From assembly GCA_963745035.1 (NCBI GenBank), contig CAVUVW010000017.1:128001-192000 (forward strand): 64,000 nt of DNA. Reading direction: 5' to 3'. Below are positions 56,592 to 62,998 of this stretch, piece after piece. The stretch is from an uncultured delta proteobacterium. GTDB taxonomy: Bacteria; Desulfobacterota; Binatia; UBA9968. Position 1 is the stretch's first letter. Each line of letters opens with the position of its first letter. The notes under the pieces were generated by a model, which was not told where the DNA came from, did no database searches, and worked only from the letters and a program-made list of their open reading frames with translations. The position numbers and the translations under genes are program-made.

Positions 56592-57623
56592 TCACTTGAT
56601 CACCTGATTCGCCCGCTCCAGCACGCGACTCGGAATTGTCAGACCGATCTGTTTTGCCGCCTTGAGATTGATGATGAATTCAAACTTCGTTGCCTGCTGC
56701 ACCGGCAAATCAGCCGGTTTGGCGCCTTTCAAGATCTTGTCCACGTAACCAGCCGCGCGCCGATAGAGGTCATCGTAGTCCGCCCCATAGGACATGAGGC
56801 CGCCCTCATCGACAAACTCCTTCTGTGGGTAAATAGCCGGCAACCGGTATTTGCCGGCAAGCTCGACGATCCGCTTTCTTTCGGCGAAAAAGGGGCGAGT
56901 GGTGATCGTCATAATCGCGTCGACCTGCTTCTGCTTTGCGGTTTGAAAGGCGCTCTCTAAACCTTTGGCATCGGGTTGAGTCTCGATCTCCTCCAATTTT
57001 AGCTTCAGTGCCAGAGCCGCAGGCCTGAGCTCTTTCAGTTGGAGGTCTGCTGCTACGCTCCCGCCGGCCGCAGAAGTCCAACTCGGGCGAGCTTGGGGAC
57101 CGCGTCCTTAAGTATCTCTAGCCTTTTGGTATTTAGCTCGGGCGTTAAACTCGAGAGCCCGGTGACATTGCCTCCCGGCCGCGCCAGACTGGCAACCAAA
57201 CCTGCACCCACAGGGTCCGCAGCGTTCGTCATCACGATGGGGATGGTAGTAGTCGCTTTCTTCGCCGCTAACGCCGCGGTGTCCCTGAGACCACAATCAG
57301 ATCAACCTTAAGACGAACCAAGTCCGCCGCAAGCTCAGGCAGGCGCTCATTCTTTTGCTCTGCAAATCGGTACTCGATGGTGATATTCTTTCCCTCAATC
57401 CATCCAAGCTTGCTCAGCTCTTGCCGGAACGCGTCCACGAGGACCGCGCTACCGGAAGCAGTGCTATTATCCAGGAAACCTATGCGGAAGATTTTCCCTG
57501 TCTGCTGCGCCTCAGACGGCACCACAAAGCGCAAAGAGCATGAGCGCAAAACGCCGCCAGATCAAGATTTTGGATTTTAGATTCTGATTGCCGTAACTGA
57601 GCCTGATTTCCTCGTTGTCCTCA
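56592..57623 (-). CDS. ABC_sub_bind SBP copy 8 (frameshifted; near-identical to copy 5; start uncertain)
   Basis: ORF pieces 57268-57549, 57053-57235 and 56592-56996. Confidence 0.88.
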
Positions 57624-57628
57624 ATCGA

Positions 57629-58687
57629 TCACTTGATCACCTTATCCGCCCGCGCCAGCACGTTCTGCGGAATCGTCAGGCCGATCTGCTTCGCGGTTTT
57701 GAGATTGATCACCAGCTCGAACTTTGTCGGCTGCTCGACTGGCAGGTCGGCAGGCTTGGCGCCTTTCAGGATTTTGTCGACGTAGGTGGCGACGCGCCGG
57801 TAGCTGTCGGGGAGGTCCGCGCCGTAGGACATGAGCCCACCGCCATTTACATCTTCTCTGCTGTCTCGTCGATGGTAACCGGCTCTTTAACGCAAAGGCC
57901 ACAATGCGTTTTTGGTTAGCATTTAGGAGCGGGCCCCCCGCGACGTAAAGTCCATCCGGGCGCTCCTTACTTAGCGCCGCGAATACCTGCTCGAAACCGC
58001 CCGCAGCTCGTACCTCCCAAGCTTGGACAGCCAACTTCAGGGCGAGAGCCGCGACGTGGAAGGTCTTCTTTCACCTCGACATATTGGCTGGAGTGGCCGG
58101 CTGGTAGATAACCGCGACACGGGCAACTTTGGGAACTGCTTCCTTCAGGAGCTCCAGCCTCTTACCGCCTAATTTTCCGTCGAGATTTGTGAGCCCGGTA
58201 ACATTGACGCCCGGCCGGGCGAGGCTTTCAATTAGGCCTGCCTCAACAGGGTCGTTCCCGGCGCCCACCATAACGATGGGAATCGTCTTGGTCGCATCCT
58301 TTGCCGCCCTGATCCAATGGATCCCTCCCGCTATGATCATGATGTCGACCTTGAGACGCACCAAGTCGGCCGCAAGCTCGGGAAGCGCGCTCGGTTTTCC
58401 CCTCGGAATAGCGGTACTCGAAGTCGATATTCTGTCCTTCTATGTAGCCAAGCTCCCGCAGAGCCAACCGAATTCCCTCAGCGCGAGCGGACTCATGAGA
58501 TGGGTCCCGCGAAGATATGTAGCCAATCCGGGTGAGTTTCTTCGGCTGCTGCGCCAGTGCCACAGCCACAACCAACACGAGCATGTAAACGATTACCGAA
58601 AGCCCCAACCATTTTCGATTTTGGATTGCTCGATTTTGGATTAGCAGATAAAGAAATCAGAATTCGGAGCCACGAGTTTTCACTCAT
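57629..58687 (-). CDS. ABC_sub_bind SBP copy 9 (frameshifted)
   Basis: ORF pieces 58243-58608, 58071-58364, 57642-58034 and 57629-57832. Confidence 0.87.
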
Positions 58688-58731
58688 ACGTTTTTCTCTC
58701 AATCCAAAATCCAAAATCGAAAATCCAAAAT
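58611..58731. repeat. heptamer inverted repeat (GATTTTG / CAAAATC) bracketing the start of copy 9
   Basis: attttcgattttggattgctcgattttggatt ... aatccaaaatccaaaatcgaaaatccaaaat. Confidence 0.8.
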
Positions 58732-59726
58732 TCACTTAATGACCTTGTCCGCCCTGGCCAGCACATTGGGAGGAATTGTGAGACCGATCTGCTTTGCCGC
58801 TTTTAAGTTAATGACCAGCTCGAACTTCGTCGGCTGCTCTACTGGCAATTCGGCAGGTTTGGCGCCCTTCAAGATCTTGTCTACGTAGATTGCGGCACGT
58901 CGATACTGCTCTGGCTGGCTCGATCCATAGGACCATCAGACCGCCGGCGCGAATCCATTCCTGCTCCGGGTACATCGACGGCAGGCGGTACTTGCTGGCT
59001 AATTCGACCAGCCGCGTTCGGTGCCGATTGAAGACACCGCCCGTTCGAACTATCAGTGCTTGGGCTCGGCCCTTCGCTATCGATCGGAATGCATTGTCGA
59101 AATCGTCAGGCCCTAGCGCCACAACCGATTGAAGCTGAACACCGAACGCTCGGGCTGCTTCGTCGGCGTGTTTCTTTACCTCGCGTGTACGAGACTGGAT
59201 CTGATCCAAAAGAAGAGCCATGCGGGAAGCTTTGGGAACTACTTCTTTCAGCAGCTCTACACGTTTCCCTGCCAATTGACTGCTAATGTTGGTGAGGCCG
59301 GTGACGTTGGCGCCGGGTCGCGCCAAGTCGGCAACAAGCCCGCCCGTAACGGGATCATCGCCATTGCCCATAATAATGGGAATTGTGCTTGTTGCCTTTT
59401 GAGCTGCACGAGTTGTCGCGGTCCCGCTTGTGACGATAATGTCGACGTTCTGACGGACAGCTTCGGCGATGCGCTCATTAGCGCGTTCCGGCTGGAGCTC
59501 GAGCCATAAAAATCTCGACGAAAACATTTGTCCCTTCAATGTAACCGAGCTCGCGCAATCCCTGGAGAAAAGCTGCGATATTAACCTGTCCCCCTGGATC
59601 ACCGGAACGCTCGGGTCGTGTAAGCACGATCCTCGGAATCTTCTTCGTCGGCTGTTGCGCTTCGGCGTGAGAGGCAAAGCGCAAAGAGCATGGCGCAAAG
59701 AGCAAGGCAGAAATCTTTCGCTTCAT
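58732..59726 (-). CDS. ABC_sub_bind SBP copy 10 (frameshifted, divergent subtype)
   Basis: MKRKISAL leader; ORF 58808-59698 body; tail [10 protein letters not shown]. Confidence 0.87.
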
Positions 59727-59768: not shown

Positions 59769-60755
59769 TCACTTGATCACCTTATCCGCTCTCGCCAGCA
59801 CATTGGGAGGAATCGTCAGACCGATCTGCTTCGCCGCTTTCAGATTGATCACCAGCTCGAACTTCGTCGGCTGCTCCACCGGAAGATCGGCGGGCTTGGC
59901 GCCTTTAAGGATCTTGTCGACCATCGAAGCGGCGCGCCTGTAGGGTTCGTCCTGGTCGGCTCCGTACGACATCAAACCCCCGCTTTCGACAAAATCTCCC
60001 CGAAAGTACATCGCCGGCAGCCGGTTTTTTGTCGCCAAGTCCGCGATCAGTTTTTGATGAGAAGTCGCCAACGTGTGCTGCGTCACGGCGAGCGCTGCGC
60101 TACGCGCCTTGATCGCCTCTTTGAACGCGCCCTCGTATTGGTCGGCGCTGCTGACCTCCATGGAATGAAGTTGCAGACCCAGTTCTCGTGCCGGCAGTTG
60201 GCTTTCTTTCCATTGTTGCGCAGCGCCTGGATTTTGTGGATCCCACAGCACCGCAACGCGGGAGAGTTTGGGAACGGTTTCCTTGAGTAACTCCAGCCGT
60301 TTGCCCGCCAAAACCGCCGCAATGTTGGTGAACCCCGTGATATTTCCCCCAGGCCGCGCCAGGCTGTCCACTAGCCCAGCCGCAACGGGATCAGACACGG
60401 CTCCAATAAAAACGATGGGGATCGTCCTGGTAGCGTTCTTGAGAGCCAAGGCCCCATTCCCCCCGGGCGTGAGGAGCACATCAACTTTGAGACGAACCAG
60501 CTCATCAGCCAGGCCCGGGAGCCGGTCGAGCTTATCGTCAGCGGATCGACGCTCGAAAGTTATGTTCTTACCCTCAACATAGCCAAGTTTACGGAACTCT
60601 CGCAGGAATAGATCGATCCTAGCGGTTGAAGCAGCGGACCCGGGTGAGAGCCAGCCGATCTTCGGCATCTTTCCCTGCTGCTGCGCCTCGGCGTGCGAAG
60701 CAAAGCGCAAAGAGCAGGCGCCAAAAGCACAGAAGACCAAGATTCTTTTCTTCAT
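59769..60755 (-). CDS. ABC_sub_bind SBP copy 11 (continuous ORF)
   Basis: Full-length ORF from MKKRILVF to [10 protein letters not shown]. Confidence 0.93.
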   Translation of the reverse strand: MKKRILVFCAFGACSLRFASHAEAQQQGKMPKIGWLSPGSAASTARIDLFLREFRKLGYVEGKNITFERRSADDKLDRLPGLADELVRLKVDVLLTPGGNGALALKNATRTIPIVFIGAVSDPVAAGLVDSLARPGGNITGFTNIAAVLAGKRLELLKETVPKLSRVAVLWDPQNPGAAQQWKESQLPARELGLQLHSMEVSSADQYEGAFKEAIKARSAALAVTQHTLATSHQKLIADLATKNRLPAMYFRGDFVESGGLMSYGADQDEPYRRAASMVDKILKGAKPADLPVEQPTKFELVINLKAAKQIGLTIPPNVLARADKVIK

Positions 60756-60802
60756 CTGTTGCACGTCCCTCGTGCCTGACACTCTGACATTCGCTCACCT
60801 TC

Positions 60803-61771
60803 TCATTGATCACCTCGATCCGCTCTCGCCAAAACGTTCGGCGGAATCGTCAGGCCGATCTGCTTGGCTGTTTTTAGATTGATCACCAGTTCGAACTTCG
60901 TCGGCTGCTCCACCGGTAGGTCGGCGGGCTTGGCGCCTTTCAGAATTTTGTCGACATAGGTGGCTGCGCGGCGGAATGAGTCTAGCCGGTTCGCATCGTA
61001 GCTCATCAGAAAACCCGCATCCACGTCGTTGTACATTGCCGGTAAGCGGCTTTTTATCGCTAGCTCCGCAATACGTTTTTGATGAAAATTAACGAACGCT
61101 CCGGATCTCACTATCAAAGCGTCAGCACGCTCTCTGGCCGTGGCTCGAAATGCGTCATCGAGATCATCTGGAGTTCGGACCTCTAAGATTTGCAGTTTGA
61201 GCCCCAACGCCTGGGCCGTTGCTTTGAGCCTCTTTATTAGTGGGGTCCACACGGGTTTCCGGATTAAACAGGATAGCTACGCGGTTAGCTTTGGGAACGG
61301 CCTCTTTAAGGAGCTCTAGCCTTTTCCCAACTAACTCAGATGGGTGGCTGATTAGCCCCGTGATGTTTCCACCCGGCCGCGCGAGGCTCTTGACGAACCC
61401 AAGCCGCACAACATCGCCGCCGTTTGTCATCACAATGGGGATCTCTTTGGTCGCGTTTTTGGCAGCTGCGGTCGCCTCACTTCCGCGGCAACGATAAGGT
61501 CGAGCTTGAGACGGATTAGCTCGGATGCAAGGTTCGGCAGCCGTTCAAGCTTCCCCTCGGCGTATCGGTACTCAATAACGATGTCCTTCCCTCAACGTAA
61601 CCCAGGTCGCGCAGCCCTTGCCGCAATGCGTCGATGCGGGCCGAGAAAGTGGCAGAGGAACCAGGAACAAGAAAACCTAGGTGAGCCTATCTTTGATTGC
61701 TGCGCCGCGGAGAACGAGTAAAGCGCAAAGAGCGTAGCGCAAAGAGTGAGAAACGAGATTGTTTTCTTCAT
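60803..61771 (-). CDS. ABC_sub_bind SBP copy 12 (frameshifted)
   Basis: MKKTISFLTLCATLFAL leader; ORF pieces 61164-61433 and 60803-61252. Confidence 0.87.
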
Positions 61772-61816
61772 GTCTTTTTTCTTATTGCCTAGTGCCTATT
61801 GACAGGTGCCTTGGTG

Positions 61817-61861
61817 TCACTTGATCACCCTGTCCGCCCGCGCCAGCACATTTGCTGGAAT
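61817..61861 (-). pseudogene. isolated 3'-terminal remnant of an array gene ([14 protein letters not shown])
   Basis: att cca gca aat gtg ctg gcg cgg gcg gac agg gtg atc aag tga with no upstream gene body. Confidence 0.85.
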
Positions 61862-61871
61862 CCATCTAAAG

Positions 61872-62008
61872 AAAATCCGAAATCCGAATATCGAAATCCG
61901 AAACAAACGGACGCGAAAGCGGACTTTGAGTTCCCGAGCACCGTTTTAGAGTTTTGCCCTTGGTCGTTTCGATTTGTTTCGAGCTTCGGATTTCGAATTT
62001 CGGGTTTT
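61872..62008. repeat. heptamer-period inverted repeat (AATCCGA / TCGGATT)
   Basis: aaaatccgaaatccgaatatcgaaatccgaaacaaa ... tttgtttcgagcttcggatttcgaatttcgggtttt. Confidence 0.8.
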
Positions 62009-62015
62009 AAACAGA

Positions 62016-62998
62016 TCATCGGATTACTTTGTCGGCTCTAGCCAGAACATTGGGCGGAATTGTTAACCCGATCTGCTTGGCGGCTTTGAGATTAATCACC
62101 AGCTCGAACTTCGTCGGCTGCTCGATCGGCAAGTCCGCCGGCTTGGCGCCTTTCAGAATCTTGTCAACATACGTGGCGGCGCGCCGGACAAGTCGCGTAA
62201 TGCTCGCGCCATAGGTCATAAGCCCCCGGCTTCCACAAATTCTCAGTCTGGCTGTATATCGCCGGCAGCCGGTTCTTTGCCGCGAGCTCTACAATCTGTG
62301 TTCGCTGTAAAATTGATAACGGGTTCCCCAACACAAGGACTGCGTCAGCGCGCCCCTTCCTTGCGTCTCGGAATGCAGTCTCAATCTCCTTGGGATCAAG
62401 TACGTCAAGTACTGAAGCTTCACTCCGAACGCGCCTGCGGCCAGTTCCATCTCTCTTAACGACTGCGGGTTGCCCGAGGGTCGAATTCCCGAAAACGGCA
62501 ACGCGGGAGAGCTCCCGGAACGATTTCCTTCAGCAGCTCCAATTGCTTTCCGCTTATCTCCGGCGCAAGAGTTGACAATCCCGTGATGTTCCCGCCAGGC
62601 CGCGCCAAGGCTGGCTACAAGCCCCTTTCCAACCGGATCGAATCCAAGGCCATGACAATGGGAATCGTAGAGGTCGCGTCCTTGGCGGGGCGGGTTGATC
62701 TCGGACCCGCCGTGACGATGACCTCTACCTTGAGATGCACTAATTCAGCCGCCAGGTCAGGAAGCCGATCTTGTCTTTCCCTCGCCAGTTCGAAACTCAA
62801 TGACGATGTCTTTCCCCTCCACATATCCAAGCTCGCGCAGGCCCTGGCGGAATGCCTCGTACCGATCCGAGATAGAGGAATGCGAGGGAGTAGCGAGGAA
62901 TCCTATCCGGGGAATTTTCTTGACTGCTGCGCCTGAACGGACGAACAAAAAGCAAAGAGCATGGCGCAAATCGCAACCGCAGAAATCTCTCGCTTCAT
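62016..62998 (-). pseudogene. ABC_sub_bind SBP copy 13 (many frameshifts; 5' part close to copy 1)
   Basis: MKREISAVAICAMLFAF leader; shares cgtaccgatccgagatagaggaatgcgagggagt with copy 1; tail [10 protein letters not shown]. Confidence 0.85.

Follow-up and report, generated by a model that had tools for sequence, protein, structure and literature searches.

A heptamer-built hairpin between two gene ends in a tandem array of solute-binding protein genes

Why should an array of genes hold, between two neighbours, nothing but a hairpin and a second copy of a gene's last fourteen codons? The locus that raises this question lies in the window, by which we mean the whole 64,000-nt stretch analysed here (positions 128001-192000 of contig C17 in the source genome, G000, 7.4 Mb). 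Paralogs run head to tail on the minus strand from about 49.5 kb to the window end and onward to C17:204486, making about 26 units. Their product is a solute-binding protein of family PF04392 (ABC_sub_bind; E = 7e-50 for the intact copy at 59769-60782), which has roughly 80 copies in the source genome. A protein-level count that leaves out contig-edge and frameshift-split copies gives 82 full copies and eight tail-only pieces versus about one head-only piece. The paralogs are old, and the closest copies are 68-82 per cent identical. Uncultured soil bacteria of this kind are characterized by having orphan binding-protein genes in large tandem families.

The locus and its support

The features of the locus, in window coordinates and in the reading direction of the genes, are the following.

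62016..62990, minus strand: copy 13 of the PF04392 array, full length in the DNA, frame broken in the assembly
62016..62060, minus strand: tail A, the final 14 codons and stop of copy 13, in an AT-rich synonymous version (…AATGTTCTGGCTAGAGCCGACAAAGTAATCCGATGA)
62016-62018, minus strand: TGA stop of copy 13, read from the sequence
61825..62019, minus strand: 64-aa ORF through the hairpin, starting at an ATG that overlaps the copy 13 stop
61862..62015, minus strand: foldback hairpin of 154 nt, built of heptamers, a member of a dispersed intergenic family
61817..61861, minus strand: tail B, an orphan of 14 codons and stop (45 nt) that reads ATTCCAGCAAATGTGCTGGCGCGGGCGGACAGGGTGATCAAGTGA, the canonical GC-rich version
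61772..61816, minus strand: ordinary spacer of 45 nt with heptamer-like units (…caataggcactaggcaataag…), preceding copy 12
60803..61771, minus strand: copy 12 of the array, ATG at 61769-61771, frame broken in the assembly

Copy 13 matches family residues 20-337 at 62984-62019 (tblastn), with its open reading frames in fragments, and shares 81 per cent DNA identity with C17:180619-181583; the closest paralog of copy 12 is 68 per cent identical in DNA. An ATG overlaps the copy 13 stop (ATGA, 62016-62019), and the 64-aa frame that it opens, the only ORF in the insert, is probably meaningless. At the orphan site tblastn finds family residues 324-337 only. Tail B begins at ATTCC, directly abutting the hairpin end, and it was recovered by nhmmer at profile positions 255-300 (E = 5e-7), with a profile built from the terminal 300 nt of 73 full copies. 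It also scores 35.2 bits on a weight matrix trained on the last 24 nt of 76 gene ends, a matrix for which 108 sites in the 7.4-Mb genome exceed 14 bits, versus none in the reversed genome. It is identical at 33 of 33 bases to the tail at C17:182694-182726. The match of tail B is far above chance. A spacer resembling the one at 61772-61816 stands after a truncated tail at C14:410702-410777. The orphan 45-nt end behind a heptamer-based inverted repeat, first reported in the preliminary description, is therefore confirmed, with the repeat now measured at 154 nt.

The junctions are covered piecewise by contigs from four other public metagenome runs, each of which contains at most 0.20 of the sampled words. 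One 643-nt contig (X2) covers 61500-61886, taking in copy 12, the spacer and the orphan and reaching into the hairpin arm, and two further pieces, X5 (61931-62081) and X1 (61978-62061), bridge the hairpin and the copy 13 tail. A full gene within the gap is absent from all of the covering pieces, none of which spans the entire stretch. Against the window, X2 has five single-base indels over 386 nt, and some of the frameshifts in copies 12 and 13 may therefore be assembly errors; the orphan structure is unaffected by these frame breaks. Joints in the public contigs that skip 199-240 were considered as a candidate empty site and rejected, because they are single-tail paralogs with less than 95 per cent likeness. 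Neither an empty-site nor a full-gene allele was seen in these piecewise contigs, so the change may have been an insertion or a deletion. Among 30 relatives the best match to copy 13 is 82 per cent and the stretch of hairpin and orphan has no match; no relative is close enough for filled and empty orthologous sites to be compared.

Isolated gene ends and the double-tail class

The profile search found 24 truncated tails in the source genome (one tail at a contig edge was not counted), and three further tails were found by the weight matrix only. Two pairs of orphan tails stem from a single region that is duplicated on C11 and C13. The truncated tails retain 28 to 172 nt. Among the 24, the start falls at profile positions 250-255 in seven cases (about -46 to -51 from the gene end), at positions 266-273 in another seven (about -28 to -35) and at 129-244 in the rest, so that orphan 5' ends form two clusters, near -45 and near -33, plus a smear. 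A set of 74 related loci (809 kb), mostly from MAGs labelled Candidatus Binatia or 'delta proteobacterium', yielded 251 full ends and 33 truncated tails clear of locus edges; ten of the 30 tails whose start is at position 194 at least begin at 245-255.

Isolated tails elsewhere, and unrelated cargo between full genes and orphan ends, had been set out as checks when the locus was first described, and both exist. In place of the gene body, several tails are preceded by a reverse-strand MazF/PemK pair, by an aspartyl-protease-like pair or by small genes. An insertion sequence (a frameshifted DDE_Tnp_1/DUF772 element, C14:390769-392078, or L004:4769-6078) lies about 51 nt before a binding-protein stop, beside CTAG, and the apparent orphan at C14:392141 is therefore the end of a split gene. 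Such cargo belongs to other loci, and at the present one only the non-coding hairpin lies between gene and orphan. Truncation is strongly biased, with eight long and about 17 short tail-only pieces versus about one head-only piece. The third codon positions of intact tails carry 0.3-1.0 bit, and this weak conservation points to constraint on the protein, not on a DNA site.

Within this census one arrangement recurs. Five loci of the source genome have it (C2:7228/7293, C2:11376/11420, C2:15712/15778, C14:394206/394252 and C17:190016/189862, the last being the present locus), as do eight in other Binatia-like MAGs (L030, L035, L041 twice, L048, L052, L054 and L082). Each opens with an intact gene; AT-rich synonymous codons make up its own, recoded tail, which mostly ends …ATCCGATGA. 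A heptamer element follows, starting 1-6 nt past the stop, and after it comes a canonical GC-rich tail (the last 15 codons) from (CG)ATTCC, then a normal spacer and the next gene. The preliminary description had asked whether orphan 5' boundaries cluster at one nucleotide; within the double-tail class the junction is constant at (CG)ATTCC (about -45), and orphan tails overall extend from -28 to -172 nt in two clusters plus a smear.

In the 12 other cases a half element is found, a run of AAAATC-type units 29-76 nt long, while at the present locus a full GAAATCC-type hairpin of 154 nt fills the gap exactly, from one base past the stop to the first orphan base. Because its element differs from those of the other 12 cases, this locus is assigned to the class by tail A, the ATGA and the junction. 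Intact members have a lysine-rich N-terminal leader coded by heptamers, which the element and a few following bases match as far as the Trp-x-Gly at the start of the signal peptide. Mini-ORFs from the stop-overlapping ATG at the other double-tail loci encode a K-rich peptide that is likewise heptamer-coded. Eleven units have a forward element right after the stop; nine of them have the stop-overlapping ATG and seven an orphan (whole, short or decayed). The intact parent arrangement, in which the overlapping ATG leads into a whole binding-protein ORF, was found in none of the 11. Relics in tandem arrays are ordinary. A literature survey of Binatia, PF04392 and IVS or heptamer repeats, conducted at a level short of full texts, found neither the recurrent double tail with its recoded first tail nor such arrays in print.

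Origin of the double tail

We compared the double-tail genes with their paralogs on a quick FastTree phylogeny of 945 nt of DNA, built from 318 gene bodies (those of 332 full ends with 990 nt available). One of 13 genes with a downstream orphan, C13_1123536, was dropped from the class because it is of another kind, and L054 is off the tree because it is cut by the locus edge. The 12 double-tail genes need 12 changes on the tree, compared with a mean of 11.9 and a minimum of 10 in 500 shuffles, and their common ancestor is the tree root; these figures are to be read with the caution that kin sequences in the tests are not independent and that conversion between paralogs could blur the tree. A single ancestral event inherited by a clade was rejected on this tree, as the number of changes is that of random labels.

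The tails behave differently from the bodies. Tail A copies of the class have A or T at 8.5 of 14 third positions, versus 3.9 of 14 in 305 other intact tails (p = 4e-8), and the same test in the source genome alone (5 versus 74 tails) gives p = 0.005, with body GC differing little. In copy 13 the count is 8 of 14. The identity of its tail A to other tail A copies is 0.788, versus 0.673 to all other tails (p = 5e-5), and the genes that carry those other copies rank from 30th to 314th of 317 by body distance from copy 13. Among double-tail genes identity is raised in the last 45 nt only (0.782 versus 0.653 and 0.696); a rise between -95 and -45 is no more than hinted at, and the AT excess begins near -54. 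At L041, two non-sister genes have 45 of 45 bases in common in tail A and 66 of 68 in the element, versus 14 of 19 immediately upstream and some 30 of 45 in tail B. The recoded tail accompanies the element, independently of the gene body. The gene together with a flanking segment had been put forward as the mobile unit, an idea that the gene tree contradicts, since the bodies do not travel with the module.

Heptamer elements that lack an orphan also have AT-rich tails next to them (6.5 of 14, n = 6, p = 0.04), and several of the 15 tails most like that of copy 13 stand beside such elements, so selection acting convergently, perhaps for a start region free of structure, could mimic co-inheritance.

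Tails A and B at this locus match at 28 of 39 aligned bases. Across the class, tail pairs are 0.702 identical within loci and 0.688 between loci (p = 0.15), and the two tails of one locus are not copies of each other. Duplication in situ, or a long target-site duplication, was rejected on this p value and because other hairpins of the family have no clearly similar flanks. Tail B has an identity of about 0.73 to the tails of its gene's nearest relatives, against a background of 0.72 and a calibration value of 0.78. It is closer to tail A than ordinary tails are, in all three thirds and with no polarity, so one simple crossover does not fit.

Our leading reading, which we hold tentatively and at a little short of an even chance, is that recombination at the conserved tail carries a small non-coding module from one paralog to another. 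The recoded tail and the heptamer element would be copied together from paralog to paralog, the conserved gene end providing the homology, by gene conversion, by template switching or by illegitimate joining facilitated by homology at GATT microhomology. Each copying would push the recipient's native tail downstream, where it would become an untranslated orphan and then decay. The founder probably arose when a downstream paralog lost an internal segment, because the element and the bases that follow it match the N-terminal leader (…K-W…) of intact members. A dedicated recombinase would not be needed. Counting against the recombination reading, 45 nt at 70-85 per cent identity is a poor RecA substrate. 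If it is correct, the gene end would be a portable recombination handle, allowing non-coding elements to spread free of a recombinase while the genes they enter are not killed, and many of the stray gene ends met by annotation pipelines in such genomes would be accounted for.

The chief rival is a plain relic, in which a paralog between copies 13 and 12 was removed by one deletion, reaching from the hairpin end in its upstream spacer to 45 nt before its stop; after that the array only decays, and nothing moves. Spacers behind stops ordinarily contain heptamer elements and hairpins, tail B leads into a usual spacer and the start of a gene, and GATT-type microhomology is present at junctions. 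The 24 truncated tails form a continuum from 28 to 172 nt, many of them behind cargo that replaces the gene body, and one supposed orphan (C14:392141) is a gene split by an insertion sequence. The two tails here are no more alike than tails of different loci, and tail-only fragments are far commoner than head-only ones. Unequal crossing-over and deletion in tandem arrays leave comparable remnants, with diverged paralogs, fragments and inserted toxin-antitoxin or S23p modules; the double-tail class differs from such remnants in that its junction recurs and its recoded tail is shared independently of the gene tree. A deletion leaves unexplained why 13 loci, in different paralogs and genomes, have the same junction, why unrelated gene bodies share the recoded tail A, and why the intact parent arrangement is seen in none of 11 units. 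We regard the relic as somewhat unlikely but as a serious contender. Were the structure a mere deletion relic it would be ordinary, yet it would still document a marked bias for keeping gene tails over heads.

A bolder form of the copying model is that an enzyme-less 'homing' module, made of a recoded replacement tail and a heptamer hairpin, copies into the 3' end of any paralog throughout Binatia-like genomes, with the tail-coding DNA as attachment homology; the host protein would stay intact and the native end would be stranded as the orphan, and the module would be a repeat dedicated to a single gene family. We consider this generalization unlikely. Group I introns and inteins home with co-conversion of flanking markers. 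The proposed resemblance is that an insert is copied into an empty homologous site along with some flank, leaving the host product unchanged; the differences are that there is neither endonuclease nor splicing here, and that the frame is kept by a duplicated end and not by removal of the insert.

A true att-like scar was the reading first proposed for this DNA. It would require a site-specific recombinase acting on elements that carry a replacement tail, with the hairpin as an element remnant. Islands and phages that integrate at tRNA or tmRNA genes target the gene 3' end and bring a replacement end, and the architecture here (gene, replacement tail, insert, native tail) fits, in that a direct repeat of the gene end flanks the insert, which supplies the new end and orphans the old one downstream. 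The common junction near -45 and the cargo between full genes and orphan tails at other loci are in its favour, as are an integron integrase elsewhere in the genome and tails that occupy attC-like positions in cassette-like arrays on C11 and C13. The differences are substantial. Inserts of the class are 29-154 nt, non-coding and devoid of an integrase; near-identical direct repeats, as expected of an att core, do not flank the insert here (28 of 39 bases), the repeats being about 70 per cent alike; orphan junctions are generally not at one nucleotide, with boundaries from -28 to -172 nt; and tail third codon positions are free to vary. A search of C17 for the integron integrase model TIGR02249 gave no match, and the array in the window consists of binding-protein copies only. 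The only full match in the genome (G000:C6:42134-43036, minus strand; 445 bits versus a cut-off of 265) has no repeated sites beside it, and by eye no attC boxes (RYYYAAC … GTTRRRY) occur in the tail and spacer of the present locus. We think a scar of this kind very improbable. The original idea that tail DNA is an integration or crossover site survives in part: the pattern is crossover-like and the first tail follows the insert, as expected of an insert that brings its own replacement end, but identical repeats and an integron integrase match on C17 are lacking, and the constraint on tails points to the protein. 'Att-like' overstates the case, and the tail does look like a crossover point.

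We would be similarly surprised if the tails were retained for function, with the last 25-45 nt of the tail and the spacer serving as an expression signal of the next gene, so that deletions stop there, and with the hairpin as a putative RNase III or terminator element. Short tails do pile up, orphan tails stand before the first gene of an array or after foreign genes (C2:19209, C11:45585, L051:1964 and L063:5195), and an open frame and the consensus are kept in most tail B copies. Hairpins of the IVS type are cut by RNase III (PMC4990558). However, relics shorter than about 20 nt are undetectable and this detection limit alone yields a pile-up, and most array genes are preceded by a full gene and not by an orphan, so that this reading looks the same as ordinary array structure. 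Predictions of sigma-70-like promoters and intrinsic terminators in 61400-62400 both number zero, versus 0.5 and 1.4 expected. A diversity-generating retroelement was set aside by reasoning, as the repeat is 45 nt and its differences are not confined to adenines.

The hairpin family and cassette-like surroundings

The hairpin arms (61872-61916 and 61964-62008) are 45 nt each and 73 per cent complementary, with 47 nt between them. They contain period-7 arrays, AAATCCG repeated 4.4 times (61873-61903) and TTCGGAT repeated 3.3 times (61985-62007). The predicted RNA fold has an energy of -49 kcal/mol (z = -3.3), and none of 200 shuffles is as stable. Allowing up to five mismatches, the arm has 23 sites in the genome versus none in the control. 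The 19 copies inspected are foldbacks 100-200 nt long, in which the arms are conserved and the centres vary, and they lie between genes of all kinds. Of 30 relatives searched, 20 have the family, namely 15 of 18 in the same genus (14 of 17 when the unpublished genome G005 is excluded), five of five in a second family and none of seven in a third. Rfam has no matching family for the hairpin, and the sole match in that search was a group II intron piece elsewhere.

Similar flanks are clear at only one of the 19 hairpins, namely this locus with its two tails, and one other has a weak gapped match; the duplication of the tail therefore belongs to the gene family and not to the hairpin. Several hairpins of the family (L103:1500-1530, minus strand; L105:1530-1560, plus strand; C11:38.7 kb) are followed after 10-20 nt by the motif TCTTGGCGCGAnAAA, which loosely resembles the CTGGCGCGG core of the gene tail.

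Bacterial genomes contain several kinds of small palindromic repeats placed just after stop codons, among them REP/BIME, Correia, RUP and ERIC elements and MITEs. The present family is like these in consisting of dispersed intergenic foldbacks of about 150 nt with conserved arms and dozens of copies. It is unlike them in that its arms are made of 7-nt units and no linked transposase was identified; inverted repeats, as in a MITE, are present, but a clear target-site duplication is absent among the 19 copies.

A second comparison is with the intervening sequences (IVS) of 23S rRNA, which occur with or without an S23p gene. In Coxiella burnetii the stem formed by the terminal repeats of the IVS is cut by RNase III and the number of heptamer repeats is variable (PMC4990558). 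The hairpin has two features of this type, a long terminal-repeat stem and arms of tandem 7-nt units. The same array also contains a gene of the S23p family between heptamer arms:

C17:199767-200165 (L099:368-766), minus strand: PF05635 (S23p) gene, E = 1.4e-18

The arms of this cassette are of the GATTTTC flavour. Unlike an IVS, the hairpin described here lies between protein genes, and it has no S23p ORF. By analogy with the rRNA elements, its role is probably in the RNA, where it would serve as an RNase III or stability element separating genes.

Heptamers are widespread in the spacers of the array, which consist of tandem units in several flavours (AGTCAGG, GGCGTGA, CAACAGG and GATTTTC; e.g. 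window positions 57580-57630, 58560-58735 and 60783-60803). Some of these spacers continue into the coding N-terminus as a lysine-rich leader (…SKIQNPKSKI-W-x-G…).

Several integron-like observations were made elsewhere in the source genome. Classic-looking attC sites (GTCTAAC…TTCAAGCC…GTTAGCG) lie at C11:149.3 kb, C13:1122.3 and 1125.7 kb, C26:96.6 kb and C17:2.8 kb. An inverted-repeat element of about 90 nt (AGGATTGAACTGAATTCTCCATCAA … TTCAGTTCAATCCT) occurs at 19 sites, for example C11:148044, C13:1122373, C14:130786 and C1:1257, and it stands directly after attC-like sites and equally after binding-protein tails ('aaGTAACGCC|AGG' versus 'GTTAGCGCC|AGG'). This element has no Rfam match and contains no tRNA; the possibility that the AGGATTGAA element is tRNA-like was dropped because ARAGORN finds none.

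Cassette-like units of one gene each, all in one orientation, make up L002 (C13:1118000-1128000) and L001 (C11:141-149 kb), and their genes include SnoaL/DUF4440, TENA/PqqC-like, methyltransferase and binding-protein genes. A TENA-like gene stands between two short orphan tails of 28 and 33 nt, and the same unit is found at L031, a locus of a related MAG. At the edge of one cassette-like array lies a fragment of a group II intron (D1-D4-6; RF02005, 62 bits, E = 1.4e-15) at L002:1120-1261 (C13:1119119-1119260).
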